Positions 3,651-31,549 of a stretch of 32,000 nucleotides of DNA are shown piece by piece. The stretch is from Microcystis aeruginosa NIES-843 (lineage in GTDB: Bacteria > Cyanobacteriota > Cyanobacteriia > Cyanobacteriales > Microcystaceae): NCBI RefSeq assembly GCF_000010625.1, contig NC_010296.1, positions 2,010,001 to 2,042,000 on the forward strand, written 5' to 3'. Made by a program: the position numbers and the translations under genes. Numbering within the stretch: the stretch's first letter is position 1; each line of letters starts with the position of its first letter. Under the pieces are notes generated by a model, which did no database searches, was not told the origin of the DNA, and saw only the letters and a program-made list of their open reading frames with translations.

Positions 3651-4001
3651 TTAAATCGTGAGGTTTAGGAATCGCCGCACTTTTAGGGCGGCGAGGATGT
3701 CAATCAAAAGCCGATCAGCATTGCTAACGGTGATCACAGGCAATGACTCTGAGGTATTTTCTTCACGCAGGACCTGCTCTAGGGAATCTTTCCCTTCCAT
3801 ACTGTGATTAGCGGTAAGCAAAATCATCTGATTCTCTTGAGCAAGTCGCCAAACCGTCCTGTCATCACTGTTGATCGACAAATCCATCTCTGCAAAGGTG
3901 ACGAACTGCATCGGGACGATATCAAGCCAGCCCTGAGTTGCGATCGCACCCAAGAAAACCAAGGCATGACCTTTGAGATTGTGATCAATCAAAAAAATCA
4001 T
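3651..4001 (-). CDS. PIN-like (DUF5615-related) putative toxin
   Basis: 116 aa starting MIFLIDHNL.., size and acidic pattern typical of small PIN-like toxins. 4-nt overlap with the upstream DUF433-like gene. Confidence 0.45.
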   Translation of the reverse strand: MIFLIDHNLKGHALVFLGAIATQGWLDIVPMQFVTFAEMDLSINSDDRTVWRLAQENQMILLTANHSMEGKDSLEQVLREENTSESLPVITVSNADRLLIDILAALKVRRFLNLTI

Positions 4002-4372
4002 ACTTTCGACTCACGCTTTGCCTTAGCCACTCGAAGCTTTTCCCAAGCAGCCTCGGAGCCTGGCTTAGGTGGTTGCGCAGCAATACGGGCAACTCGCTCA
4101 CGATTTTGCTCTTCGTAATACTGTCGGAGTTCTTCAGCTTCTTTGAGAACTTGCTGGTACTCAGCTTCCACATCCGCACGATGAGCCTCAATATAAGCCA
4201 GGGCAGTGTTAATTTGCTCTTCCGTCAGATCAAATAATCCCTGAATGAACTTAGGTGGATATTGAGCAGTCACATAATCCATTACATCATAGAGGGTGAT
4301 GCGGGTTCCTGCGATTGTCAGTCCTCGCTCTGTACGAATGATAGCGGTTTTTCCATTAGATGCGAGCGTCAT
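3998..4372 (-). CDS. DUF433-like putative antitoxin with a charged coiled C-terminal tail
   Basis: 124 aa. IAGTRITLYDVMDYV....EEQINTALAYIEAH resembles the DUF433 homeodomain-like fold. Translationally coupled to the PIN-like gene. Confidence 0.55.
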   Translation of the reverse strand: MTLASNGKTAIIRTERGLTIAGTRITLYDVMDYVTAQYPPKFIQGLFDLTEEQINTALAYIEAHRADVEAEYQQVLKEAEELRQYYEEQNRERVARIAAQPPKPGSEAAWEKLRVAKAKRESKV

Positions 4373-4735
4373 AGCTATAGTCTCAGTCTTTCACCATCTC
4401 ATTCCATATTACCGCATGAAAAAGTAAGGTGAGCAAACGCCCACCCTGACTACTAATTCGCAAGCTCTTTAATCCTCGACCCAGACCTTCAAAATGTATT
4501 TCAGCCTCGTTCCTGCATCTAGCCAGTAGTGAACTCCAATATCTGGCAATTCAGTATCATTTGTGTGAGCATCACCAGGCCCCGTACTACAAGATCGGCG
4601 ATCAAATTTAGACCACAGCTTCAATCAATGGGTGTGGTGCGTTCCCCAAAATCGATCAGTGGAGCAGTAGGAGCCACATTAGGGAACGCACCCTACAAGA
4701 GCGGCGATCTGCTATGCAGTGCCTTCGGCATCGCA

Positions 4736-4857
4736 CTGACAATTAGGCTCATTCTAGCGATGATTCTTCGATCTGACCGCACCCCTTAACAGAAACTTAC
4801 AGTTATTCGACCTTTTGCGATCGCTATCGGGAGATAGTTGTTTTTTGTTAGAGCAGT
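4736..4857 (+). repeat. 122-bp direct repeat, right copy (partner at 3002-3124)
   Basis: See the left copy. Same orientation, 1611 bp apart. Confidence 0.9.
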
Positions 4858-4878
4858 ATGGAGCAGTCTAACTGATGG

Positions 4879-5343
4879 CTATATTTCCAGATTATCGCCC
4901 GCAGGAAACCAATCTTCATCGAGAATTTGTTCAAGGGAACCAATGGGAATAACGGGGAAAGTATCGAGGGGTAATTGAGAGCGGTCACTGGCATTTTTTC
5001 GGGCTGAAAGATAACATTCATCAAAAATTTCCAAAAGATAAGGTTTCAGACTAGGACTATCTTTAAGTTCATCTAATATATCGAGACGAAAAGTTCTAAT
5101 CTCTCCCTTCCAGTGACCTTCGTTTCTCTCTCTTTCTGCCGCCCAATATTTGAGCTTAAGTAAATGTTCTAATAATCGGGTTAACAGACTTTTAATTGTG
5201 CGCTTTTCACTCCTTCCCATACTTGCTAATTCCTCTAGTAAATTCTCTAAATCTACCCGCTCAAACTGTCTGGCTTGCAGTTGATTAATAGTAGTTCTAA
5301 TCCAGAGATAAAAGTCTTCTTCGTACAGGGTTTTATTATCCAT
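4879..5343 (-). CDS. DUF29 domain protein, paralog 1 (most diverged)
   Basis: 154 aa. LYE.DFY.W......L.....E.VDLENL.EE..S.GRSE+R, ...W.GEI...R..I....KDSPSLKPY and a ...DEDWFP end are the classic DUF29 pattern. Confidence 0.8.
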   Translation of the reverse strand: MDNKTLYEEDFYLWIRTTINQLQARQFERVDLENLLEELASMGRSEKRTIKSLLTRLLEHLLKLKYWAAERERNEGHWKGEIRTFRLDILDELKDSPSLKPYLLEIFDECYLSARKNASDRSQLPLDTFPVIPIGSLEQILDEDWFPAGDNLEI

Positions 5344-12556: not shown

Positions 12557-14776
12557 AACTGCGGCAGAACTTTGAACCCACATTCCGCACCCTCAACTGT
12601 CACATAATACCAAATTTCTAAATCCATGACAGACATCCACGCTCGAATGCTTGCCAAGCCGGTGTTCGTTGTGACGCGAATAAAGAAAAATGGTGTAAGC
12701 TGTCCCCCTCCAGAGACTTGAGTAAAAATACCTAGCTGGTGAAGGTTTTCTCGGTGGCCGCTAGGGGGGTCTTGAGACCCCTAATTATGAAAAAATAGGA
12801 ATTGTTGGAAAACTGAGGCGAGTGGACTGTTCGACCATGAATCAATCAACAGAAATTGAAGTCAAAAATCTAGACCATCTGGGATTAGTAGCCGGAATTA
12901 TCGATGAAATAGGAATCGTTGAAATTATCAACGAACAAGTCTCAATTGAGCGAGGAGAAATTGTCACAGCGGGGCAAGTAGTGAAAGCAATTATCCTGAA
13001 TGGATTGGGATTTGTCTCCCGAGCCTTGTATTTATTTCCTCAATTTTTTGAAGATAAAGCAACCGAACATCTGCTGGGAGAGGGCATCGAACCCAAGCAC
13101 TTGAATGATGATAAAATTGGTCGAGTAATGGACAAACTTTATCAACTGGATGTTTCGGGTATTTTCCTACTCATCAGTTTAGCCGCCGTGAAAAAATTTG
13201 GTGTAGCAACCGAGAACTCCCATTTAGATTCGACTTCTCTATCAGTAGAAGGAGAATATAAAAAGGAATACCCAACAGTAGAAATCCTGAAATCAGGAGC
13301 AGTGGGAGAAGAAATTGAAACCAGACAACAGCCAATAAAAATTACCTACGGATACTCCCGCGACCGACGACCTGACTTAAAACAATTTATGATTGACTTA
13401 ATCGTAAGTGGGGATGGAGATGTACCTTTATTCCTGAAAGTAGGGGACGGAAATGAAGCGGACAAAGCGGTTTTTGGTCAAATCGCCCGAGAATTTAAAA
13501 AACAAGTTGACTTTGACAGTTTAATAGTCGGCGATAGCGCCCTCTATAGCAAAGAGAATTTAAAACTAATGAAAGAAATGCGTTGGTTGTCTCGAGTACC
13601 ATTAAGCATTAAAGAGGCTCAAGAGTTAGTCGATAGCATCTCAGAAAAAGAGTTAACCGATTCAGAAATACCGGGTTATTCCTGGCGGGAAACAAGCTCT
13701 AACTATGGGGGGATAGAACAAAGATGGTTGCTAGTTGAAAGTCAAGCTAGACAAGAATCAGACTTGAAAAAATTAGAGAAAAAAATCGAGCAGGAAAAGA
13801 ATTCTGCCCAAGAAAAAATCCGGCAACTATCCCGAAGAGAATTTGAGAATAGAGCGGTGGCGTTGGCGATAGCCAAAGGATTATCTGACTCCTTAAAATC
13901 TCATCAGTTAACGGAGATTAAAGTCAATCTCATTCCGCCTGAGTCCCAGGGGTCAAAACTCAAATCAAAAGACGATTTACCCTCTCAAAGCTATCAAGTT
14001 CAAGCCAAATTAGAGTTGAATTTGACCGCCATTGAGAGGCTAAAGAAACGAGCAGGACGATTCGTTTTAGCAACTAACGATTTGGAGAAACAACGATTAA
14101 GCAGTGAGGATATACTCAAAAAATATAAAGGGCAACAAGCTCCGGAAAGAGGATTTTCTTTTCTCAAAGACCCCTGCTTTTTTGCCCACAGTGTCTTTCT
14201 CAAATCTCCCCATAGAATCGAGGTCATGGCCATGCTCATGGGCTTGTGCCTGCTGGTTTATACTATTGGTCAAAGACAACTTCGTTTAAGTTTAAAACAG
14301 CAGGAGACGGGACTGAAAAATCCGTTGGGTAAGTTAACTGACCGACCGACGTTACGCTGGATATTTCAGTGCTTTCAAGGGATTCATCTCGTCCGTATTC
14401 AAGACAATCAAAAGATTAGCAACTTAACGGATGAGAGGCGCAACATTTTGAGATTTTTTCCCAAACCTTGCCAGGAATATTATCTCTTATCTTGACCAGA
14501 TGGATTGACTTCAAGGGGTGACAAAACAAAGCGAGCAACTGGAACATCTCCCCCTAGATGTTAAGTCTGATTGCCTAGTCATTCTCAACAAGCACTGTTT
14601 ATTGAGAATGACCGGGGGAACTCTGAAATTTTCGGCTTAGTTGCCGGCAGCTTGCCGCCAACTCACTCCTCTAGATAAGTATTTTGACTCACGCCCCTTC
14701 CTCTTTTGAGACGTTGTGACACTTAGGGTGCGGAATGTGGGTTTGAACAATTCTGGCGGGAAGCTGCCGCGCAGTT
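12557..14776 (+). mobile_element. IS1634-family (IS4 superfamily) insertion sequence; ends approximate
   Basis: Imperfect inverted termini: aactgcggcag...ttgaacccacattccgcaccct (12557-12593) versus agggtgcggaatgtgggtt...ctgccgcgcagtt (14725-14776), enclosing one transposase gene. Confidence 0.7.
12837..14495 (+). CDS. IS1634-family transposase
   Basis: About 552 aa. The N-terminal NLDHLGLVAGIIDEIGI motif and overall length and architecture are typical of IS1634 transposases. ATG at 12837 preferred over GTG at 12822. Confidence 0.75.
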   Translation: MNQSTEIEVKNLDHLGLVAGIIDEIGIVEIINEQVSIERGEIVTAGQVVKAIILNGLGFVSRALYLFPQFFEDKATEHLLGEGIEPKHLNDDKIGRVMDKLYQLDVSGIFLLISLAAVKKFGVATENSHLDSTSLSVEGEYKKEYPTVEILKSGAVGEEIETRQQPIKITYGYSRDRRPDLKQFMIDLIVSGDGDVPLFLKVGDGNEADKAVFGQIAREFKKQVDFDSLIVGDSALYSKENLKLMKEMRWLSRVPLSIKEAQELVDSISEKELTDSEIPGYSWRETSSNYGGIEQRWLLVESQARQESDLKKLEKKIEQEKNSAQEKIRQLSRREFENRAVALAIAKGLSDSLKSHQLTEIKVNLIPPESQGSKLKSKDDLPSQSYQVQAKLELNLTAIERLKKRAGRFVLATNDLEKQRLSSEDILKKYKGQQAPERGFSFLKDPCFFAHSVFLKSPHRIEVMAMLMGLCLLVYTIGQRQLRLSLKQQETGLKNPLGKLTDRPTLRWIFQCFQGIHLVRIQDNQKISNLTDERRNILRFFPKPCQEYYLLS

Positions 14777-15741: not shown

Positions 15742-16989
15742 CTGGACTGTTTCAGCTAAAATAGGGCAATAGCTCGAACAAGCAGAGGACATCAATCATG
15801 GGAAGAGGTCGGCGAGATAAAGTCAATCTAACAGGGGAACAAAGAGAAAACCTCGAACAAATCAGTCGTAATGGCTATGCACCAGCTAAAAAAATTCTCC
15901 ACGCTCGGATTTTGCTGATGTGTGACGAGGGAGAACAGGCGAAAAGGAAATGGACAGATGAAGAAATAGGCGAAGCTTTAGAAGTTCATAGAAATACAGT
16001 GGGACGTATTCGTCAAAGATTTCTTCAAAAAGGCGAAAAACCAGCATTAGAACGGAAATCGAGAAAAACTCCCCCCACTCCGGCAAAAGTTGATGGAGCC
16101 GCCGCCGCCCAAATCATTGCCCTGTGCTGTTCGGAGCCACCATCTGGCCGAGCCGAGTGGACAATCCGACTATTAACCTCGGAACTCAAACAAAGACAAA
16201 TTATCACCGAGATTTCCAGTCCAACGGTGTGGCGTACTCTAAAAAAAACCAATTACGCCCTTGGAAAACCCAAAGATACTGTATTCCGGAACAGGATTTA
16301 GCCCGATTTGTTGCCCAGATGGAAGTTGTCCTTGACCTGTATGGCACTCAGCCATCGGAAGAAGAACCGTTAATCGCGATGGATGAAGCATCAAAGCAAC
16401 TACTTGGAGAAGTTTACCCTCCGATACCCATGCAACCTGGACAAGATAAAAAAGAAGACTATCACTATAGTCGTGAAGGGGTTCAAGCCTTGTTCATGTT
16501 TTTTGACCCCCATCGAGGATGGAGACGGGTGAGTAACCGAGATAGTCGAACCCGAATAGATTGGGCAGAAGAAATTCGTCAATTATTGGATGTGGACTAT
16601 CCAAAGGCTCGAAAAGTCAAGCTCGTCTGTGATAATCTCAACACTCATAACATAGCCTCGCTTTATGAAGCATTTCCAGCACCCGTTGCTCATCGTTTAG
16701 CTAGAAGACTGGAAATTTATTACACACCTCGTAATGGTAGCTGGTTAAATGTAGCCGAAACTGAACTAAGCGTCTTATCGAGGCAATGTTTAGATAGAAG
16801 GATTTCTAGCAAGGAAGAACTGAAAAGGGAGATAGAAACCTGGCAAAAAGAACGTAATCAGACTGCATCTACAGTAATATGGACGTTTACGACCAGCGAT
16901 GCTAGGGTCAAGCTGAAACATCTTTATCCTGTGTTTGAGGAGGAGGAATCGGGAGAATCTATTGCACCAAATTAGCTGAAACAGTCCAC
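15742..16989 (+). mobile_element. IS630-family insertion sequence, 1248 bp, flanked by TA
   Basis: TIRs CTGGACTGTTTCAGCTAA (15742-) and TTAGCTGAAACAGTCCAC (-16989). TA on both sides (15740-41 and 16990-91), the IS630/Tc1 target duplication. Confidence 0.85.
15798..16975 (+). CDS. IS630-family transposase in two frames (orfA 15798-16301, orfB 16124-16975); needs a -1 shift on A8 at 16241-16248
   Basis: orfA ...VWRTLKK then orfB NQLRPWKTQRYCIPEQD... restores the family-typical LKKN.L+PW...+.WCIP junction. orfB carries the DDE region. Confidence 0.75.
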
Positions 16990-19534: not shown

Positions 19535-19834
19535 ATGACCACCAACGTAGCGAAAACTCAATGGCAGTATTTAGAGAAACGTCCTCATCCTTGGCGACAA
19601 CAGCTTTGTTTTCAAGGCAGGAGGCTGAAAGCTTTTGATGTCTGGTCAGATATGATTGTCAATGACATGACTCCTCAAGAAGCAGCCCTTAATTGGGAGT
19701 TACCCCTGGCTGCCATCTACGAAGCAATTGACTACTGCGAGGCTAATCAGCAGCTACTCAAGCAAGAAGCGGAAGAAGAACGCCACCGTCTGGAAGCAAA
19801 GGGGATTAGTATTGAGCCTAAGATTATTGCTTGA
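19535..19834 (+). CDS. DUF433-like putative antitoxin
   Basis: 99 aa. GRRLKAFDVWSDMIVNDMTPQEAALNWELPLAAIYEAIDYCEAN resembles DUF433. Directly precedes a DUF5615 gene. Confidence 0.55.
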   Translation: MTTNVAKTQWQYLEKRPHPWRQQLCFQGRRLKAFDVWSDMIVNDMTPQEAALNWELPLAAIYEAIDYCEANQQLLKQEAEEERHRLEAKGISIEPKIIA

Positions 19835-20171
19835 TGAGGACTCGCAATCCCAACTTCTGGTTAAGTTACTTACGGCTGCTGATCATGACGTACTGACGAT
19901 CAATGAAATTGGTTTGGCTGGCTGCACAGATAATGTCGTACTTGACTATGCTATACAGGAAAATCGGATTCTGCTAACTCATAACTGCGATGACTTTGAA
20001 GAGTTGCACCAAGCGAATCCAAACCATTCGGGGCTCTTCGCGGTTTACCGTAACGCTAACCTCTTAAAAAATATGGGCTTCAAGGCAATTGTCAAGGCAA
20101 TCGCCAATCTCGAAACTGCTAACGTCCCCCTTGCTAATCAGTTCATCTCCCTGAACCACTGGAACTATTAA
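19827..20171 (+). CDS. DUF5615 PIN-like putative toxin
   Basis: Family-like sequence begins at LLDEDSQSQLLVKLLTAADHDV...ILLTHNCDDF. I place the start at TTG 19827, overlapping the upstream stop. The track ATG at 19728 would overlap the antitoxin gene by 107 nt. Confidence 0.6.
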   Translation: MLDEDSQSQLLVKLLTAADHDVLTINEIGLAGCTDNVVLDYAIQENRILLTHNCDDFEELHQANPNHSGLFAVYRNANLLKNMGFKAIVKAIANLETANVPLANQFISLNHWNY

Positions 20172-21019: not shown

Positions 21020-21048
21020 TTCTCAAGTTTTTGGAGTCAGTATATAAT
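21020..21048 (+). promoter_or_regulatory. Weak sigma70-type promoter candidate for the 21271 operon
   Basis: TTCTCA (21020-25), 17-nt spacer, TATAAT (21043-48) in an AT-rich region. Sequence match only. Confidence 0.2.
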
Positions 21049-21115
21049 GGTTGCTTATCTTTGTTGAAAAATAGAACTCCTGCAAAAATCCAACATCTAC
21101 CATTGGGTTAGAAGT

Positions 21116-21263
21116 CAGTTATCAGTTATCAGTTATCAGTTATCAGTTATCAGTTATCAGTTATCAGTTATCAGTTATCAGTTATCAGTTATCAGTTCAC
21201 TGAGAAAACTCCCCACACCCCACACCCTACACCCCACACCCTACACCCCACACCCTACACCCC
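21116..21263 (+). repeat. STRR-type heptamer arrays: (CAGTTAT)11 at 21116-21192 and (CCCYACA)~7.5 at 21211-21263
   Basis: Perfect tandem 7-mers ending 7 nt before the ATG at 21271. The complementary strand reads (GGGGTGT/AGGGTGT)n. Confidence 0.95.
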
Positions 21264-21270
21264 AATTCTT

Positions 21271-22605
21271 ATGAGAGATTCCCTATCGAGCCATCTAAGA
21301 GTACAACAACATTGCCTCAATCAAGTTAAATTAGCCGTGAGAAAGCAGGGCTTTAGCAGTCAACGCTCCTTAGCTAAAGAAGCTGAATTTAGTCTGGCTA
21401 TTGTCAGTAACTTCCTGACCGGTAAACCGGTAGAAAAAGCCACTTTTGCCCAAATTTGTCGTCGATTATGCCTCGACTGGCAAGAAATCGCCGCCCTGAA
21501 TGTTCAGCTAACAGCACCCCCTCAAGACAAAATTCTGGTTAATTCTCCATCCAAGAGCGAAAAATTGGACACATTACCCCCCTATCCCAATGGGGCAGTT
21601 CCCCTTGGTTCCCCATTTTATTTAGAACGTCTTCCCCTCGAAGAACAGATAAGGCAGGAAATCAAGAAACCGGGGGCTTTAGTGCGGATAAAAGCCCCGA
21701 AAGAAATGGGCAAAACTTCCCTACTTTTGAGAATGCTCGATTTTGCCAAACAGCAAGGCTACCGCACGGTGAGTTTGAACTTAGAACAGGTGGACCAGAC
21801 GATTTTGGCTGATTTAAACCAATTTTTGCGCTGGTTGTGTGCCAATGCCGCCCGTCAACTACAGTTAAAACCGCAATTAGATGAGTATTGGGATGAGGAT
21901 TTAGGCAGCAAGATTAGCTGTACGGTTTACATTCAAGACTATCTGCTTGAATCGATTACCGCCCCCATTGTCCTCGCTCTCGATGAACTTAATCAGATTT
22001 TTGAACATCCCCAGGTGGCCAAGGATTTTTTACCGCTGCTGCGTTCTTGGTACGAAGAAGCCAAAACCCTACCTATTTGGCAAAAACTCCGTCTTATCGT
22101 CGTCCATTCCACGGAAATTTATGTTCCCCTGCAGCTCAATCAATCCCCCTTTAACGTGGGATTCCCCGCACAGTTAAGTCATTTTAGTCTTGAGGAGGTA
22201 TTGCAATTAGCCCAACGTTATCAACTCACCTGGGAAAATCAGGAAAAAGTCAAACAATTGATGGAGTTAGTGGGAGGACACCCGGCTTTGGTACAAACTG
22301 CCCTCTACTATCTCAGTCGGGAGGAAATAACCATGACGCAAATATTAACCAGTGCCACCTCCGTCACGGGGATTTATGCCCATCACCTGCGACGCCATTG
22401 GGCGGTATTAGAACAACAGCCTGAACTAGCAAAAGCCCTCGATCGGGTGATGAGCGCGGTGGAACCCGTACAATTAGACCCAATTCTCGCTTACAAACTC
22501 AGCAGTATGGGGCTGCTCAAACAATCAGGAGATAAAGTAGTACCAGGCTATGAATTGTATCGACGCTATTTTTTAGAGGTGAAATCCTCTATCAGTTATC
22601 AGTAA
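21271..22605 (+). CDS. HTH + AAA_35 (AAA-like domain) STAND-type P-loop NTPase
   Basis: 444 aa. N-terminal HTH-like segment (SQRSLAKEAEFSLAIVSNFLTGKP). Then SPFYLERLPLEEQIRQEIKKPGALVRIKAPKEMGKTSLLLRM (Walker A at nt 21706-21720), Walker B IVLALDELNQI and GGHPALVQ, the pattern I associate with Pfam AAA_35. Confidence 0.7.
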   Translation: MRDSLSSHLRVQQHCLNQVKLAVRKQGFSSQRSLAKEAEFSLAIVSNFLTGKPVEKATFAQICRRLCLDWQEIAALNVQLTAPPQDKILVNSPSKSEKLDTLPPYPNGAVPLGSPFYLERLPLEEQIRQEIKKPGALVRIKAPKEMGKTSLLLRMLDFAKQQGYRTVSLNLEQVDQTILADLNQFLRWLCANAARQLQLKPQLDEYWDEDLGSKISCTVYIQDYLLESITAPIVLALDELNQIFEHPQVAKDFLPLLRSWYEEAKTLPIWQKLRLIVVHSTEIYVPLQLNQSPFNVGFPAQLSHFSLEEVLQLAQRYQLTWENQEKVKQLMELVGGHPALVQTALYYLSREEITMTQILTSATSVTGIYAHHLRRHWAVLEQQPELAKALDRVMSAVEPVQLDPILAYKLSSMGLLKQSGDKVVPGYELYRRYFLEVKSSISYQ

Positions 22606-22840
22606 ACAGTAAACAGTAATCAGTAATCAGTGAGGGTGTGGGGTGTGGGGTGTAGGGTGTGGGGGGAGTGGGAATTATGAATTATGAATTATGAATTATG
22701 AATTGGGGAGGTGGGGAAGTGGGGAAATTGAACTAAAACCCCAAAACCCCAACACCCCAACACCTAAAACCTGTCTCCTGGCTCCTGAATCCTGACTTCT
22801 GAATCCTATCTCCTGACGACCGACGACCGGCTCCTGACCC
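22591..22840 (+). repeat. Patchwork of heptamer/octamer tandem repeats: CAGTWAW, GGGGTGT, GAATTAT, GGGGAAGT, CCCCAAMA, CTCCTGA-like, CGACGAC
   Basis: Directly visible. It begins inside the last codons of the 21271 gene (atc agt tat cag taa). The 3' flank (caccaacaaactttttgccgcaaaccctac) resembles the TIR of the 7320 MITE family. Confidence 0.9.
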
Positions 22841-22872
22841 CACCAACAAACTTTTTGCCGCAAACCCTACTT

Positions 22873-24705
22873 ATGAATATGTCAATCAAAGATACTGTCC
22901 AAAATACTGTCAACGTTAGTAATTTTAGTCGCTCGCAACTAGGTCAACCGGATGAGAACAATTTATATCAAGCAGTCGCCACAATTACCGAGGGACGTTG
23001 GCCAGAAAATCTGTCGGGATACGTTTTTATCGTCTGTCCTTTTCATAGAAAAAATGACCGTCATTTGTTCTCTGGCGAGGGTGTAATTATTAAATGGGAC
23101 TTGCAAGGGAAAAATAATCAAGTTAATGTTTACAGTAAGAAACTGAAAACCTGGGATAGTTTTTGGCGAAAAGTTTTACCGATATTTAATATTAGTCAAG
23201 CCACTTTTCCTGCCGTGGTCAGCATTTTGGGTTGTTCAGAAATAGCGAATACTGCTATGATTAAACTAGAAAAAGTTGCCGAAGATCAACAACTAGAAGA
23301 AACCAGATTAATTCTCACCGCCGATGCGGGACGTTACTGGGAAGTGGACCCCGTTTCCCTTGATACTATCACTCCGATTGGTTATTTTGACCAACATATT
23401 GTTTCCGTGCCTTTATCTTTTTTCCCAGTCCTAGAAAATACCGCTCATCCCTTCTACGACAAAAAAACCAAAGAATTTATCACCTGTGAATTAAAGCTAA
23501 AACTTGTATCGGGAGGTATGTTAAAAGACTTAGATAAATCGGCGTATATTGTTCTTTGGGATCAACAAAAACAACTTAAACCTTGGAAACTACAGGGAGC
23601 TATCCTCGATGGTAGTCCCCATTCGGTCATCGTCACCGAGGATTATATCATGATTCCCGATATGCCTTTTCAGATGGGAGTAGCCAAACTATTAGGTATC
23701 AGAATTAAGCCGGAAGAAACCTATCCGAAAACTCAAATTTATCTGGTTAAACGTCAAGACCTCAAGGAAGAAGAAACCACCGTTCCCTCGCAATTAATTA
23801 CCTTCAATGGCGACAGTTATCACTTCCTTTGTAATTACCATAGTACCAACGGTCAAATTCAGCTGGTGGCCATCCAAAACGCCACTATTAGTTTAACCGA
23901 AGCGATCGAAAAAGACGATATCCAACATTTTACCGGTCAGGGTTATCCTCCCGAATACCACGGCATTCCCTGGATGTTTTCCTTTGACCCCGGAGTGCTG
24001 CGCAAAGTGGTTATCGAAGATGCCAGGGTGATGAGCGAACAAGCTTTCATCCATCCGGGGTGGTTCTCTACCACTCTCTACACCGCCGACCCGCGGGAAT
24101 CGGAACAGGGATACAGCGCTATTTATCAGGTTTATGCCGGTTATGTGCGCGAATTAATCTGTCGTCGTCAGTATATGGATTTTCGCGACCAAAGTAATCG
24201 CATCCTCAGGGATGCCGAACTTCCCTGTCATGACTTGCCCTCGGTATTAGCCAAGGTTTCCTTCGATAAGGATTGGAATCAGTTAACTGAACAGATTAGC
24301 CAAGAAAAAAAAGCCAGTAATACTCATGTATCACATTTAGGTCGGGGACTACTGGATTTTTATGTTTGTCCCGATGGCTATATTTTAGATAGCATTCAGT
24401 TTATTCCCCAAGAACAGGGCTATCTATTTACGACGGTTTTAACCCCGACCAGAGTATTAGAAGCTTGGTTATTTAACCCTGACAATCTCAAGGACGGACC
24501 GATTGCTAAACTGAGTTTGCCGGAAGATGTTCACTTTGGTTTTACCTTGCATTCCGAGTATTTCGAGCAAGTGCTGCCTTCTCCCCGTCCTTCCGTCTCA
24601 CAGGTAAATCGAGTCCTGTCAGCCTTGCGGAGTCTTGTTTTAGTTCCCGTAGAATTTTTCTTGGGGAGACCCGCAGCCATTTACAATCGCCAAGTAAAAA
24701 AATGA
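22873..24705 (+). CDS. Divergent carotenoid oxygenase (RPE65/CCD) family-like protein
   Basis: 610 aa from ATG 22873; the track uses TTG 22855, which lies in repeat-derived sequence. Candidate iron ligands: H192 (TAHPFYD), H250 ([16 protein letters not shown]), H317 (SYHFLCNY), H560 (FTLHSEY). Motif contexts and the 58/67-aa spacings resemble AHPK.D, HDFAITENY and FHH.NA in known CCDs. Confidence 0.6.
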
Positions 24706-27700
24706 TTGTTCTCAACGGATACGACATTCTTGCCCAAATCTACGAAAGTGTTAACTCAGAAGTCTATCGGGCCATTCGCATCGCCGATAATCAACCGGTT
24801 ATGCTCAAAATCCTCAAGCAAGAATATCCAACCGCACAAGAACTAACCCACTACAAACAGGAGTATAAAACCATCTGCGGCCTGAACTTCGAGGGGGCGA
24901 TTAAAGCCTATGGTTTAGAAACCTACCGCAGAACTCCCGTGATTATTTTGGAAGATTTCGGGGGTATATCCTTAAAAAAATGGCTAGAGGGCAAACCCCT
25001 GGCCTTAAGGGACTTTTTAAGCCTTGCACCCCGAATAGTGGCTAATTTAGAGAAAATTCACAACGCCAAGGTTATTCACAAAGATATTAATCCTGCCAAT
25101 ATAGTTCTTAACCCCGAAACCGGACAAATTAAAATCATCGATTTTGGCATTGCCAGCGTCCTGCGGCGGGAAAATCCGGGGCTAAAAAATCCCAACGTCC
25201 TTGAGGGGACTTTAGCCTATATTTCTCCGGAACAAACCGGACGGATGAATCGCAGTCTCGATTACCGCACGGATTTTTATTCCTTGGGCGTTAGCTTCTA
25301 CGAACTTCTCACCGGACAATTACCTTTTCGGGCTAAAGATGCTTTGGAATTAGTTCACTGTCATCTGGCAAAACAACCTCTGGAGATTAATAGTCTCGTC
25401 AGGGAGAAAATTCCCCCGGTGGTGGAGGCAATCATCAGGAAACTGATGGCTAAAACCCCCGAGGAACGATACCAAAGTGCCTATGGTATTCGGGCAGATT
25501 TAGAAGAATGTTTAAGACAACTAGAAACAACGGGTAAAATTGAGGATTTTGTCATCGCTGGGCAAGATCTAGCCAATCAGTTCCAAATTCCCCAAAAACT
25601 CTACGGTAGGGAGGCGGAAATCGCCACTCTCCTCACTGCTTTTCAACGGGTAGCCACCGCAGATAAAAACTCCTCTCACACCGAACTGATGCTAGTTACG
25701 GGTTATTCTGGCATGGGTAAAACCACCCTGGTTAGGGAAATTTACCAGCCAATTACTGAAAAACGCGGCTTTTTTATCTCCGGTAAATTTGACCAATTTC
25801 AGCGCGATACTCCCTACGCTGCCGTGGTTAGCGCTTTGACTCATCTCGTCAAGCAACTTTTGGGGGAAAGTCAACCACAACTGGAACTATGGCGACAAAA
25901 ACTCCTCAAGTCTTTGGGGGCGAATGCACGGGTTATTATTGATGTGATTCCTGAACTAGAATTAATTATCGGTCCACAACCAGAGGTGTTACAATTAGGA
26001 GCGATCGCTACTCAAAATCGCTTTAATTTAGTCTTTAAAAATTTTATTCGGGTCTTTTGTTCCCCGGAACACCCCTTAGTCATCTTTCTCGATGATTTGC
26101 AATGGGCAGACTTGGCTAGTCTCCAGTTAATAGAATTAATTATGCTCGATGGCGATATGGACTATTTGTTTTTAATTGGCTCCTATCGCAGTAATGAAAT
26201 TAATTCCACCCATCCCCTAACCGCTACTCTCGATAAATTAGAGCAGGGGGGCATAATTATCAATCAAGTTATTTTAAGACCTCTAGGTCCTGCACAGGTC
26301 AATCAGTTAATTGCTGACACCTTAAATCATTCACCAGAATATGTGCAATCTTTGGCCGCTTTAGTCTGGCAAAAAACCCACGGTAATCCTTTTTTTGTCA
26401 ATGAATTTCTCAAAACTATCTACTGGGAAAATTTGCTATTTTTCCAACTGGAGCAGGAAAAAACCACTAAAACCGACAATAATAGGGGTTATTGGCAATG
26501 GCATCTCGGTCAAATTCAAAGGATTGGTAGTACCGATAATCTGATTCAATTTATGGTCGGTAAAATGCAGAAATTGCCCCCCGAAACCCAGGAAATTTTA
26601 AGTTTAGCAGCTTGTCTTGGGCCAGAGTTTAATTTATATAGTCTGGCAGTAATCTCTGAAAAATCACCTCCAGAACTTTTACCAATTTTAACTTCTAGTA
26701 GCGAAGCTGGTTTAATTATTCCCCTCTCAGAATTGGATGAACAATTACTGATTCAAGAATATAAATTTGCTCATGATCGCATTCAACAAGGAGCTTACGC
26801 TCTCATCGAAGACAGCAAAAAATCTTTAATTCATTTAAAAATTGGTCGCCTCCTTTGGCAGCATACATCTGTCAACGAATTATCGGAAAAGATTTTTAAA
26901 ATAGTCGATCATCTCAATCTTGGTTATCGACTAATTAGCGAGGAAAAAGAACGAGAGTCAGTGGCTAACTTGAATTTACTAGCAGCCCAAAAGGCAAAAG
27001 CCGCTAATGCCCAAACTGGAGCCTTAAAATATATTAAAATCGCTCAAAAACTTCTCAAAAAATCCAGCTGGAAAAATAACTATCAACTGACTTTAAATAT
27101 TTATTCTGAAGCCACAGAAATCGCCTATTTAAGTGGGAACTTTGAGCAGATGCAACGCTGGGCTAATCTCGTATTAAAACAGGCAAAAACAACCCTAGAT
27201 AAGGTTAAAGTTTATGAAGTCATCATCGAAGCCTATCACGCCCAAAATCAAGAACTAAAAGCGGTAGAAATTGGTTTATCCGTCCTCAAAAGCCTAGATT
27301 TCGAGATTCCTGAATCCTTACAATCATCAGATATTCAAAAAGAACTAACTAAAACCAGACAAAAATTAGCGGGTAAAAATATCAAAGATTTAATTAATTT
27401 ACCGCCGATAAATGAAGAAGAAAAATTAGCAATCATGAAGATAGCAAGTGCCATATTTTCTCCTGTTTATATTGCCGCCCCTCATCTCTTACCCATCCTA
27501 GTATCAAAACAGGTTAACTTATCAATTGAATACGGCAATAGTTATCTAGCGGCTTTTACTTATGTCAATTATGGCTTAATTCTTTGTGGTCTTTTAGAAG
27601 ATTGGGAAACGGGTTATCAATTTGGACGATTAGCTTTAAACATTGCTGATAAATTTCATGCCAAAGCCCTGATGCCGAAAATAATTGCCGTCTTTTCCGC

Positions 27701-30700
27701 CACTATTAGTATCTGGAAAGAACCGATTAAAAATTCCCTGTCCTTGTTAAAATCTTCCTATCAAACCGGTTTAGAAATGGGCGATCTCTACTACGGAACA
27801 ACCTGCGCCTATCTTTACTGTTTTCATTCCGCCTTTATCGGACAGGAATTAACCGAATTAGCCCAAGAAATAGCTAACTATGATCTGGCTTTTGTTAAGC
27901 TCAAACAAGAAAACCCCCGCAACTATCTAAAAATCTATGGTCAAACAGTTTTAAATCTGCTGAGGCACTCGGAAAATCCCGGTCATTTAGAAGGACAGTA
28001 CTATCAAGAAACTCTTATGTTACCGTACCATCTAGAGGCTAATGATCTCTTCGGTCTCTGTGCTTTATTTGTTAATAAATTATACCTTTGTTATCTATTT
28101 GGACAGTACGAACCAGCCATTGAAAATGCTAACCAAGCCCAAAATTATCTAGGGGGAGCTACCGCTACTTTATTGATTCCTCTGCATAATTTCTATGATT
28201 CCCTCGCCCATTTAGCTATTTATAATCATCTGGATAATGACCAAAAACAGCAAGTATTAGAACGGGTGACGAATAATCAGAAAAAGCTACGGGAATGGGC
28301 TAATCAAGCACCCCCTAACTATCTCCATAAATTTTATTTAGTGGCAGCGGAAAAGGATCGGGTGCAGGAATCCTATCTAGAAGCCATAGAAAACTACGAT
28401 CTAGCCATCGCTAAAGCCAAGGAAAATGAATACATTAATGAAGAGGCACTGGCTAACGAACTAGCGGCGAAATTCTATCTCGATTGGGGTAAAGTAAAAA
28501 TTGCCAAAACCTACATCAATGAAGCTGCTTATCTCTATTCTCTTTGGGGAGCAACAGCTAAAGTCAAAGATATAGAAAGCCGTTATTCTCAGTTAATGGT
28601 CAATAATTATGGTTCCAATTCCCTGACCGAAACTAGGAGAACTTCCACCAGAAAAAATTCAGCTAGTCATTCGGGAGAACTGTTAGATTTAGCCACGATT
28701 ATGAAGGCCTTCCAAGCCATTTCTAGCGAGATAGTTTTAGATAAATTACTCGCCACCCTGATGAAAATTCTCATCGAAAATGCTGGGGCGCAGCTGGGCT
28801 ATCTTATCCTAGAAAGCGGCGGACAACTATTGATCGAAGCCTCCGGTTCGGTGCAGGAAGATGGGGTGACAGTCTTTAAATCTAATGCCATCGAAGAACA
28901 TCTTCCCGTCTCAATTATTAACTATGTAGCCCGGAGCGGTCAAACCGTTCTTAATGACGATGCTGCCCATGAGGGCAATTTTAGCAATGATTCCTATATT
29001 AAAACCCATCAAACCAAATCCCTGCTCTGTTCGCCCCTCCTCGACCAAGGACAACTGCGGGGAATTGTCTATCTAGAAAATAATCTCACCGTCGGGGCTT
29101 TTACCCAAGAAAGATTGGAAGTGCTGCAACTGCTCTCCAGCCAAGCGGCGATCGCAATTACTAACGCCAAACTCTACGCCGAAATCAAAGCCAAACAGAG
29201 ACAACTAGCGCAATTTTTAGAAGCGATGCCAGTGGGGGTATTCGTCCTCGATGCTGGCAGTCAACCCTATTATGCCAATCAAACCGCCCAAGAGATTTTA
29301 GGCAAAGAGATAGTTAATATCACCACGGCTAATCAGTTGGGGGAAACCTATCAGTTATATCAAGCTGGAACCGATCGATTGTATCCCACAGAATACCATC
29401 CGATTGTCCGAGCTTTAAGGGGGGAAAAAAACACGATGGATGATCTAGAAATTCACCAAGGAGAGAAGATTATTCCCCTAGAAGTGTATGCCACGCCCGT
29501 TTTTGACGAAAAAGGAGAAATTATCTATGCGATCACCGCTTTTACCGATATTACCGAACGAAAACAGGCGGAAGCGGAACGGATTCGCTTTACCGAAGAA
29601 TTAGCCGAGTATAGCCGCACCCTAGAACAGAAAGTGCAGGAGCGCACCCTAGAACTCAGCCAAACCCTAGAAATTCTCAAGGCCACCCAAGCAGAATTAC
29701 TGTTTGAAAACGAACTCCTCAAAACTAACGAACAATCTAGCACCTTTGACTACCAAGTGGGGGGCAGTTTACCCATGGATGCCCCCACCTACGTGGTCCG
29801 CGCCGCCGACCGTTATCTCTATAAAGCCCTCAAACGGGGCGATTTTTGCTATGTTCTCAATCCCCGTCAAATGGGTAAGTCTAGTTTAATGGTACGCATG
29901 ATCGACCACCTCCAACACGAGGGGGTCTGTTGCGCTCCCATTGATTTAACCCGCATCGGCAGCGAAAATGTCACTCCCGACCAATGGTACAAGGGGATAG
30001 CCTTCGAGTTAGGGCGACGTTTTGGACTGCTCAAAAGGGTCAATCTCAAAGCTTGGTGGCAAGAACGGGAAGATGTCTCGGCAGTACAGCGCTTGGGCGA
30101 ATTTATCGAAGAAGTGTTATTGCTGGAAGTGGGGATCGTGGAAGGTTCTCCCCCGAAACCGATCGCGATTTTTATCGATGAAATTGATAGCGTTTTGGGC
30201 TTAAATTTCGCGGTTAATGACTTTTTTGCCCTGATTCGTTCCTGCTATAACCAGCGTGGTTTTAACCCGCTCTATCGGCGTTTGACCTTCGCTTTCTTCG
30301 GTGTTGTCACCCCCTCCGATTTAATTACCGACCACCAAATCACTCCTTTTAATATCGGTCATTCGATTCAATTGGAGGGTTTTAAGGAACACGAAGCCCA
30401 GCCTTTACTGCGCGGATTGGCCGAGAAAGTTAGTAACCCGCAAACTGTCTTAAAAGAAGTCTTTGCTTGGACAAACGGTCAACCTTTTCTGACCCAAAAA
30501 CTCTGTCAGTTAATTCGCACCGCCGCCTCGCCGATTCCCCCCAATGGTGAGGCCTCCTGGATTGAGGACTTGGTACAGAAGAAGATCATTGACAATTGGG
30601 AGGCTCAGGATGAACCGGAACATCTGCGGACTATTCGCGATCGGCTTCTCAACAGTCATCGCTCCCAGTTGCTCCTGAAACTCTATGAACGGATTTTAAG

Positions 30701-30854
30701 GGAAAAAGAGGTAATTTCCGAGGATAGCCCTCCAGAAAAAGAGTTACTTTTATCGGGGTTAGTGATCAAAGACCAAGGCCGGCTGCTGGTCCATAATCCC
30801 ATCTATCAAGCAATCTTTAACCCCCATTGGCTGGCCCTGGCAAAATCAACCTAA
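24702..30854 (+). CDS. 2050-aa multidomain protein: Ser/Thr kinase + AAA_16 NTPase + helical/TPR-like region + GAF + PAS + coiled coil + C-terminal AAA_35 NTPase
   Basis: Kinase: [12 protein letters not shown] (H126/D128), DFG (D147), SPEQ. AAA_16: Walker [10 protein letters not shown] (nt 25701-27), Walker [15 protein letters not shown] about nt 28680-29190. PAS about 29215-29560 (..[14 protein letters not shown]). Coiled coil to about 29740. AAA_35: [50 protein letters not shown] (Walker A nt 29871-82), Walker [16 protein letters not shown] overlap with the upstream gene. Confidence 0.75.
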
Positions 30855-30946: not shown

Positions 30947-31059
30947 GGAGGTAATATAGCGTTTTTCAGTCTGCTGAGGTACAAAAGTTATGGGTTTTAG
31001 GCAAAAGGGAAGAAAAATATGTGTACCTCACTAACTTAGGAAACGCTATATATTACCTC
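30947..31059. repeat. 113-bp long imperfect palindrome (hairpin MITE-like)
   Basis: ggaggtaatatagcgttt (30947-64) pairs with aaacgctatatattacctc (31041-59). Inner arms are tgaggtaca / tgtacctca. Confidence 0.65.
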
Positions 31060-31177
31060 GTTCTTAGGTTCTACTGGGGAACGCTATGGGGAGCATCTCA
31101 CTCTTGTAACCCCTAAATCAGGTTTCATGTCAAGCTATTTTGAAAGCCTTGCTAGAAACCAGTTTTAGAGACAAGTA

Positions 31178-31414
31178 TAATTAGGACTTGCTGAATAATG
31201 GTAAAACCCTTTGAAAATAAGGCTTTTGACCTGTTAAAATCTGATGTTAGTGCAAGAAAATAGGATTGGGACATTCAAAAACCTTGCATTATTCTCCTTA
31301 TAGTACATAAACTGGTACAAAAAAAGAGGGCAACAAAGCCTGAAACGACCGACTCCTGACTCCTGACTCCTGACTCCTACCCCCACGAAAAACTTTTTCA
31401 GCAAACCCTAATTA
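31178..31414 (-). mobile_element. MITE, TAATTAGG.. family (copy C, inverted relative to 7320-7566), nested in a second IR pair
   Basis: Its reverse complement aligns end to end with 7320-7566. Flanked by ggggagcatctca (31088-31100) and tgagatgctccc (31429-31440), i.e. probably inserted into another small IR element. Confidence 0.8.
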
Positions 31415-31549
31415 CTAGCTTGCATAAATGAGATGCTCCCTGGAGATTCGTGCGATCGCTCTGTATAATCAATGATCCCGAACCTTGGTGATTAAAAAAG
31501 CGTTAATTGCTTTTTTATCACTGTTCTCTGCTTGAGAGAGAAAAAAACC

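Follow-up and report, generated by a model that had tools for sequence, protein, structure and literature searches.

What is the function of three adjacent genes that place an unusual oxygenase between two putative signalling proteins in a bloom-forming cyanobacterium? The genes lie in a 32,000-nucleotide stretch of the Microcystis aeruginosa NIES-843 genome (contig NC_010296.1, positions 2,010,001 to 2,042,000; hereafter the window) and are named here, in their order along the forward strand, g1, g2 and g3. g1 encodes an AAA_35 nucleoside triphosphatase (NTPase) with a predicted N-terminal helix-turn-helix (HTH) domain, g2 a divergent carotenoid-oxygenase-family enzyme, and g3 a giant protein in which a Ser/Thr kinase, an AAA_16 NTPase, GAF and PAS domains and a second AAA_35 module follow one another (Table 1). 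Comparison across cyanobacteria revealed that g1 and g3 form a widespread bracket around swappable enzyme cassettes and that the window locus is one variant of it. On balance the evidence tilts towards the locus being a cluster-situated signalling device, in which a cassette-matched sensor half is joined to a generic PAS-AAA_35 output and an HTH-AAA_35 partner, with the oxygenase as the cassette part. The open reading frame (ORF) listing and Pfam showed that the three genes are co-oriented (+), as a first-pass annotation of the sequence had described. Each domain named in that annotation was recovered in or close to its place, including AAA_35 and RPE65 and, in g3, Pkinase, AAA_16, GAF, PAS and AAA_35, and the ATGA overlap that joins the g2 stop to the g3 start is present in the sequence. 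Of its span for the locus, 21,020 to 30,854, the end stood and the start did not, position 21,020 being noncoding and part of a promoter-like hexamer pair. The annotation had also called the system undescribed; in agreement, a literature search covering AAA_35 (PF14516), the g1/g3 pair, the g2 oxygenase clade and YcaO with kinases in cyanobacteria returned no description within the library searched.

The first line of evidence is conserved linkage. In a scan limited to one genome per species, homologues of g2 turned up at 44 loci. g3 follows g2 in all 11 Microcystis loci and in 21 of the 27 informative loci from other genera, including Nostoc, Mastigocoleus, Hyella, Waterburya, Hydrococcus and Xenococcaceae, and the gene order is kept across several cyanobacterial orders. 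g1 is linked to g2/g3 in 15 non-Microcystis loci and is upstream in most loci. It is convergent and downstream of g3 in Waterburya (L017, L035; L numbers denote loci), and upstream on the opposite strand in L039. The linkage therefore outlasts rearrangement. These data bear on the simplest alternative, that mobile elements brought together three independent genes, of which g2 would be an ordinary carotenoid-cleaving enzyme. The window is indeed rich in transposases and repeats, and solo g2 homologues occur. Chance adjacency is nevertheless hardly credible given the g2-g3 order in those 21 genomes, the retention of g1 through rearrangements, the ATGA overlap, and the very small size of the g2 clade, in which 15 representatives out of 1.84 billion proteins reach E<=1e-30. 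The possibility that the trio is never found together outside this strain, raised with the original description of the locus, is contradicted by the same loci.

Further analysis revealed that the pair also encloses other enzymes. Metagenomes were scanned with the C-terminal AAA_35 module of g3, which gave 310 relatives, of which 80 were fetched, and the gene contexts of paralogues were also read. Relatives of g3 fall into two tiers, orthologues with 61-95% identity and a large paralogue tier with approximately 50-58%, of the same length and domains. g3-like giants (41-63% identity in the N-terminal domains) and a g1-like gene were found to enclose other cassettes. One of these contains a fused thiazole/oxazole-modified microcin (TOMM) cyclodehydratase, YcaO (TIGR03604 278 bits, TIGR03882 163 bits, both above cut-off), with an amidohydrolase, to which some loci add a radical-SAM/SPASM protein, an O-methyltransferase, a DyP-like peroxidase or an amine oxidase. 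Another consists of tandem double oxygenases of 1000-1440 residues, with two RPE65-like halves approximately 24% identical to g2. Further cassettes hold a TP_methylase with TPR proteins, an amine oxidase, a PhyH dioxygenase, or a lone leader-peptide-binding protein. In a 'g1-direct' class, g1 abuts the giant, with a P450 and a GNAT gene upstream of the pair and FAD monooxygenase/halogenase-like genes downstream. Like g2, other cassettes abut or overlap the giant gene. When g1 homologues were picked independently of giants, three of three lay in such brackets. Because the same bracket holds other enzymes, the oxygenase is a swappable part and not the defining one.

The YcaO cassettes also encode small proteins of 164-237 residues that share the C-terminal motif IP[LVF]xT[TS]. 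They matched no family in NCBIfam or Pfam; judging from their sequences, an undescribed TOMM-type product is probably made from them. One paralogous bracket, that of Calothrix sp. PCC 6303 (L048), lies on CP003611.1, an 80,757-bp record of the size of a small replicon, which hints that bracket cassettes can be plasmid-borne. The paralogous locus of Calothrix PCC 6303 is interrupted by a DUF4277/DDE_Tnp_1 transposase, a type that also occurs in the window.

How the giant might signal is indicated by two orthologous Nostoc loci (L034, L117), in which it is encoded as two genes. Gene A (approximately 1800 residues) has the order Pkinase-AAA_16-GAF-HisKA-HATPase_c and is a true HstK; gene B (approximately 730 residues) is Response_reg-PAS-AAA_35. 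Residues 1 to ~1504 of the window g3 are colinear with gene A, and residues ~1497-2046 with gene B from its residue 165. The junction that matches the Nostoc His-kinase/receiver segment falls at approximately residues 1495-1505, just upstream of PAS, i.e. between GAF and PAS. From this colinearity, the Microcystis g3 is an HstK without its His kinase followed by a response regulator without its receiver, and from the Nostoc split the signal is taken to run from the sensor half to the AAA_35 module. Deletion and fusion would be the simplest history of the Microcystis gene.

HstK dual kinases, or cbSTKIII, comprise Alr2258/HstK and Alr0709/Alr0710 (Pkn40/Pkn41 in the survey) of filamentous cyanobacteria (PMC2176072). 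With its HisKA-HATPase_c, Nostoc gene A is a bona fide member, whose AAA_16 domain was detected in the Pfam scan made here and is unlisted in that survey. The window g3 resembles this group in its N-terminal Hanks-type Ser/Thr kinase with catalytic residues, followed by GAF. It differs in that Pfam detected no HisKA, HATPase_c or receiver domain in the window proteins, so that GAF leads straight into PAS-AAA_35 and the His kinase and receiver partner of a two-component system, both present in L034 and L117, are missing. Moreover, the described HstK kinases are not known to have an AAA_35 partner or to lie in an enzyme bracket. The key residues of the remaining modules are conserved: 115-117 of 117 relatives retain kinase residues K36, H126, D128 and N133, and the Walker A and B motifs of AAA_16 (GxGK[ST], LDDLQW) and AAA_35 in g3 are invariant or nearly so in the 117 members. 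In the search for the TPR-like repeat arm typical of STAND NTPases, no Pfam repeat family matched g3 residues 500-1345, with a weak TPR_CHK1 match in one paralogue.

The two halves of g3 have distinct evolutionary behaviour. Same-cassette orthologues are 71% identical to the window g3 in the kinase, 65% in AAA_16, 60% in the middle region, 73% in GAF, 58% in PAS and 72% in AAA_35. For other-cassette paralogues the respective values are approximately 55%, approximately 49%, 31-47%, approximately 53%, 53-71% and approximately 72%. By these identities the kinase, AAA_16, middle region and GAF co-vary with the cassette and PAS-AAA_35 does not, PAS being equally similar to other-cassette paralogues and to orthologues. 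It had been proposed at first pass that GAF and PAS sense the oxygenase product and relay it to AAA_35. The relay to AAA_35 is upheld by the Nostoc His kinase and receiver between GAF and PAS; the matching of PAS to the oxygenase is not.

The AAA_35 module of g3 instead tracks that of g1. In a distance-matrix correlation over 31 non-redundant loci (465 pairs), pairwise distances of the two AAA_35 modules correlated with r = 0.82, as compared with 0.46-0.62 for g1 AAA_35 against the g3 sensor domains and 0.43-0.56 for g3 AAA_35 against its own N-terminal domains. Co-evolution of the g3 AAA_35 with the g1 AAA_35 is thus indicated by the sequences. Both modules are secure members of the family, scoring 495.6 bits in g1 and 114.7 bits in g3 against a cut-off of 27. 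HTH-AAA_35-AAA_35 tandem fusions and tandem g1 genes also occur and are compatible with homotypic AAA_35 contacts. In a fold search the AAA_35 fold was nearest to archaeal AAA+ SSO1545, Avs4, MalT, ORC/Cdc6 and NLRs, with low template-modelling (TM) scores. Single-sequence searches of g1 and of g2 against solved structures returned only noise, and profile and fold searches were needed to place both structurally.

The g1 family is large, with more than 4410 homologue clusters at E<=1e-10, every named one cyanobacterial; the best 120 clusters have 51-99% identity. Its N-terminus is XRE-type in Microcystis. In all other orthologues of the carotenoid cleavage dioxygenase (CCD) type an unrelated N-terminal domain takes its place, with the AAA_35 part conserved. 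A match of one paralogue to PF26355 (HTH_VMAP-M9) makes it probable that this alternative domain is an HTH as well, while a Pfam scan of the L021 copy gave no family. A related pattern is seen in the paralogue giant P0247 (L131), which is 96% identical to the window g3 in AAA_35, 75% in PAS and 34% in the middle region, a mosaic that could have arisen by gene conversion between paralogues or as an assembly chimera. Both the g1 N-terminal swap and the P0247 mosaic suggest that the output half has been exchanged or homogenised. g1 is proposed to be the DNA-binding output partner of g3.

With the knowledge that the sensor half follows the cassette, it could be supposed that g3 belongs to the biosynthetic machinery. 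Its kinase and helical region would bind and phosphorylate the cassette enzyme or a peptide substrate, as a scaffold or activating kinase comparable to class III/IV lanthipeptide synthetases, and g1 alone would regulate. The last gene of the cassette is translationally coupled to the giant, the middle region shows the strongest co-variation with cassette type, and Thr/Ser-rich IP[LVF]xT[TS] tails end the precursor-like proteins found in YcaO cassettes. In addition, g3 residues 299-799 partially match TIGR03903, the 'TOMM system kinase/cyclase fusion protein' (114 bits against a cut-off of 705.75), and paralogous giants, not the window g3, are encoded beside the fused TOMM cyclodehydratase. To our knowledge, no function is known for TIGR03903 proteins. 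A one-line passage of Haft et al. (2010; PMC2887384) places large Ser/Thr kinases beside TOMM clusters in Burkholderia. However, g3 has no cyclase domain and falls far below the model's cut-off, the window cassette is an oxygenase rather than a TOMM set, and GAF, PAS, AAA_35 and an HTH-AAA_35 partner appear neither in the model name nor in that passage of PMC2887384. The oxygenase cassette also comes without a peptide substrate, and one giant architecture serves chemically unrelated cassettes. Moreover, the Nostoc form is a full His kinase with a cognate receiver protein, a hallmark of signalling, and GAF and PAS are sensor domains. A biosynthetic role for g3 is therefore considered unlikely.

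The first-pass annotation had named a signalling or conflict system as candidates. If the locus served defence, through abortive infection or the programmed death of cells in a colony, the STAND-like NTPases would be the sensors of an invader, with the kinase and oxygenase as effectors. The AAA_16 P-loop of g3, with Walker A and B motifs, is of the STAND (MalT-like) kind, and the AAA_16 and AAA_35 folds resemble the STAND proteins Avs4 and NLRs. The g3 kinase domain matches PADLOC defence-kinase profiles, the window locus adjoins transposases and a DUF5615 toxin-antitoxin-like gene, and sister loci might make TOMM products with antibacterial activity. Against this, the PADLOC matches are only generic kinase ones, with none for g1 or g2 and none at system level in PADLOC-DB. 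Pfam revealed no nuclease, TIR, caspase, pore, effector-associated or death-type domain in g1, g2 or g3, which sets them apart from the NTP-dependent conflict systems of Kaur et al. (2020), and AAA_35, YcaO and RPE65 go unmentioned in the conflict-system papers checked, that study included. On the output side there is instead an HTH, joined in Nostoc by a His kinase and receiver of the classical type, and the cassettes hold biosynthetic or tailoring enzymes with precursor-like small proteins. A defence role thus appears quite improbable.

The enzyme itself does belong to the carotenoid cleavage oxygenase superfamily, although it is very divergent. g2 matches Pfam RPE65 (PF03055) at E 9e-23 with 81.5 bits (cut-off 27), and the match spans profile positions 13-467 of 469. 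The four His noticed at first pass (H198, H256, H323 and H566 in 616-residue numbering; codons 23446, 23620, 23821 and 24550) proved invariant or at least 90% conserved across the g2 family. By family profile, His1 (NTAHP), His2 (SPHxxIVTE) and His4 (TLHSEYF) align with the canonical motifs of a solved dioxygenase; His3 was placed by motif alone. The AlphaFold model is confident (predicted local distance difference test, pLDDT, 82; predicted TM score, pTM, 0.88), and its top Foldseek match is Synechocystis ACO (2biw; E 1e-19, 16% identity, target-normalised TM 0.71), followed by stilbene/lignostilbene dioxygenases (LsdA), CAO1, NinaB and RPE65. From this match to solved family members, a seven-bladed beta-propeller is predicted. 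g2 therefore resembles the cleavage oxygenases (Synechocystis ACO, LsdA/NOV1, CAO1, RPE65) in its predicted propeller and in the AHP, HxxxxxE and LH motifs that align for three of four His. It differs in being only approximately 12-17% identical and approximately 120 residues longer, and in an invariant Asp (D157, TADAGRYW) where the first Glu of the second-shell triad would stand. The clade numbers approximately 83 close clusters, all named sources being cyanobacterial. Its nearest non-cyanobacterial relative, P0084, adjoins another RPE65 gene and selenocysteine genes, with neither g1 nor g3 there.

In Pleurocapsales, CCD-type loci contain a fourth gene beside g1, of approximately 565-596 codons, whose product has no match in Pfam but is clearly homologous to vanadium-dependent bromoperoxidases (1qi9, E 9e-50). 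This suggests a haloperoxidase-plus-oxygenase cassette without counterpart in Microcystis. Neighbouring genes were also considered as a link to carotenoids. Phytoene desaturase and phytoene synthase (crtP-crtB) lie directly upstream of g2 in L020 (872-3370) and L022 (6222-8716), and this candidate was rejected: the arrangement is confined to these two closely related Pleurocapsales genomes, and therefore represents one event and no evidence for a carotenoid substrate.

Taken as a signalling device, the locus would work through two modules. The sensor half would comprise the first 1500 residues of g3 (Ser/Thr kinase, AAA_16, the region without a Pfam family, and GAF). It is expected to be cytoplasmic, no transmembrane segments having been found in g3, and would most likely detect the g2 product, the g2 substrate or g2 itself. 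The output half would be the PAS-linker-AAA_35 part of g3 together with g1. In Nostoc, the halves would communicate as separate proteins by His-to-Asp phosphotransfer, from HstK to Receiver-PAS-AAA_35; since the Microcystis halves are fused without His kinase and receiver, coupling there would be intramolecular. Activation may then lead to nucleotide-dependent assembly of the g3 AAA_35 with the g1 AAA_35, which would put the g1 HTH domains on DNA and control transcription, probably of the g1-g2-g3 unit itself.

Parts of this arrangement have precedents. In MalT/LAL-type STAND regulators an AAA_16-type NTPase and a helical sensor region control adjacent pathway genes, and Mycobacterium tuberculosis PknK has an N-terminal Ser/Thr kinase in addition. 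These proteins use their own DNA-binding domain or a separate phosphorylated regulator, whereas here the HTH belongs to another protein with its own AAA_35, and the sensor terminates in a second AAA_35. NtrC-type response regulators are built as Receiver-AAA+-HTH. The Nostoc receiver likewise precedes an AAA+-like module, a hint that phosphorylation controls oligomerisation, but AAA_35 is STAND/ORC-like rather than a sigma-54 activator AAA+, the HTH is on another polypeptide and PAS intervenes. NisK/NisR is an autoinducing two-component system inside a lantibiotic cluster, with NisK as the membrane sensor of an extracellular peptide. A sensor and regulator inside a small biosynthetic cluster make it a plausible model of product-sensing feedback; it differs in that g3 has no transmembrane segment and in its output chemistry. 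Altogether the output pair is unstudied and the modular arrangement unusual, with parts of known signalling kinds.

Several observations weigh against this account. The HTH half of the HTH-AAA_35 fusion first described for g1 was sub-threshold in Pfam (HTH_26 E 0.054, HTH_31 E 0.08). AlphaFold did yield a five-helix bundle there, in a model of moderate quality (pLDDT 75, pTM 0.47); some g1 homologues match PF01381/PF13560 significantly, and the JGI label is XRE-family. The correlation of 0.82 could reflect species phylogeny or within-genome homogenisation and not contact. Solo g2 homologues without g1 or g3 and with unrelated neighbours are found in Moorena, Leptolyngbya and Prochloraceae, so that the enzyme is independent of the pair; the Prochloraceae copy is without two iron-ligand His (H198, H566). 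In several Microcystis populations a TnpB-type gene (OrfB_IS605 with a Cas12f1-like TNB domain) lies between g2 and g3 (L010 4346-5590, one Microcystis species genome; L052-L058 ~3709-4950, seven Microcystis metagenome contigs), which breaks the ATGA coupling. Microcystis intergenic DNA at the locus is almost pure tandem repeat and unsuited to phylogenetic footprinting for a g1 operator. AAA_35 hetero-assembly, DNA binding by g1 and its target genes are what we infer, as are the ligand and what the Ser/Thr kinase does, and the cassette may be the regulated target, the signal source or both.

A more ambitious joint reading is, as a whole, rather unlikely. In it, the AAA_35 pair is a previously unrecognised output, in which a sensor- or receiver-controlled AAA_35 recruits HTH-AAA_35 into a mixed, nucleotide-dependent, DNA-acting oligomer. 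One plug would be reused with many sensor halves for metabolite or ribosomally synthesised and post-translationally modified peptide (RiPP) cassettes, and in Microcystis the GAF/helical part would read an intracellular signal of apocarotenoid type that g2 produces or removes. At its far end, this reading could make g2 the source of beta-cyclocitral, as the beta-carotene 7,8(7',8')-oxygenase, an enzyme 'not identified yet' according to a 2016 review (PMC5133782).

Table 1. Features of the g1-g2-g3 locus, its surroundings and related loci. Positions are those of the window, except where a locus (L) or protein (P) number is given.
Feature	Position	Strand	Remarks
g1, HTH-AAA_35 protein, 444 aa	21271..22605	+	Pfam AAA_35 E 7e-149, residues 105-435
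g1 N-terminal five-helix XRE-like HTH (predicted), residues 13-73	21307..21489	+	AlphaFold helices 13-25, 31-37, 42-49, 56-65, 70-73
g1 AAA_35 NTPase module, residues 105-435	21583..22575	+	Walker A GKT at 147, Walker B LDELN at 237
g2, 610-aa oxygenase	22873..24705	+	probable ATG start 22873, equals database protein P0001; ORF open from TTG 22855
g3, 2050 aa	24702..30854	+	start overlaps g2 stop (ATGA)
g3 Ser/Thr kinase, residues 18-258	24753..25475	+	Pfam Pkinase E 4e-36; K36, H126-K-D128, N133, DFG 147, SPE 175
g3 AAA_16 (STAND-type) NTPase, residues 299-492	25596..26177	+	Pfam AAA_16 E 1e-42
g3 long region between AAA_16 and GAF	26178..28736	+	no Pfam family; most cassette-specific part of g3
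g3 GAF domain, residues 1346-1486	28737..29159	+	Pfam GAF E 3e-16
g3 PAS domain, residues 1506-1622	29217..29567	+	Pfam PAS_4 E 3e-11
g3 PAS-AAA_35 linker, residues 1623-1687	29568..29762	+	no Pfam domain; conserved in all relatives; putative coiled coil of the first-pass annotation
g3 C-terminal AAA_35 module, residues 1688-2040	29763..30821	+	Pfam AAA_35 E 5e-33; Walker A QMGKSS, Walker B FIDEID
Promoter-like hexamer pair TTCTCA-17-TATAAT	21020..21048	+	~220 nt upstream of g1; 10/12 consensus matches, consensus match only
Heptanucleotide tandem-repeat arrays TCAGTTA x11.9; CCCCACA/CCCTACA x7.7	21115..21264		directly 5' of g1 start codon
g1-g2 spacer	22591..22817		nearly all six short tandem-repeat arrays, periods 7-8
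Cytochrome P450, molybdopterin-oxidoreductase-domain gene and three tandem paralogous ORFs of ~152 aa	4879-9032	-	upstream, past transposases
Transposase gene, DUF4277 + DDE_Tnp_1	12822-14495		4-8 kb upstream of locus
Transposase gene, HTH_32 + DDE_3 in two overlapping frames	15798-16975		4-8 kb upstream of locus
DUF5615-domain gene overlapping 99-aa ORF	19535-20171		just upstream of locus
Tandem double oxygenases in paralogous brackets	L050 4814-9004; L117 7-3003; L075, L110, L112; P0328, P0331		same position as g2
Small YcaO-cassette proteins	L132 11352-11846; L134 11362-11856; L045 5524-6150; L048 6507-7220; L133 15168-15845		IP[LVF]xT[TS] C-terminus
Bromoperoxidase homologue	L021 8017-9804; L023 8093-9784; L036 7559-9349; L039 5439-7136(-); also L017, L035, L078		beside g1

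Tandem repeats with units of 7-8 nucleotides make up the DNA just before g1 and the whole g1-g2 spacer. Repeat units include TCAGTTA (12 copies), CCCCACA, GGGTGTG, GAATTAT and CCTGACT, and the final g1 codons extend into a tandem-repeat array. Tandem repeats of 7-8 nucleotides were also found downstream of g3, at 31351-31378. The arrays resemble the short tandemly repeated heptamers of cyanobacteria. Imperfect long inverted repeats with arms of 20-37 nucleotides lie downstream of g3 at 30948-31059 and 31089-31440, and may be remnants of miniature mobile elements. An Rfam scan of the window gave no match. Upstream, the DUF5615 gene and the 99-residue ORF look like a small toxin-antitoxin-type pair. 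P450 genes adjoin some 'g1-direct' brackets elsewhere, with no link shown to the P450 of the window.

If the signalling account is true, bloom-forming and filamentous cyanobacteria possess a widespread, unstudied regulatory module, since g1-type proteins number in the thousands and g3-type giants in the hundreds. AAA_35 would gain its first functional context, a domain for which neither literature nor a close match among solved structures was found. The account would also provide an output for HstK kinases, for which the papers checked report expression and phenotypes but no downstream partner (PMC2176072, PMC2442094). The small, tightly regulated cassettes (TOMM-type, oxygenase, haloperoxidase and methylase) would be targets for genome mining. 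For Microcystis, it would mean that a very unusual carotenoid-oxygenase-family enzyme is tied to a dedicated sensor, and a possible intracellular apocarotenoid signal becomes testable.

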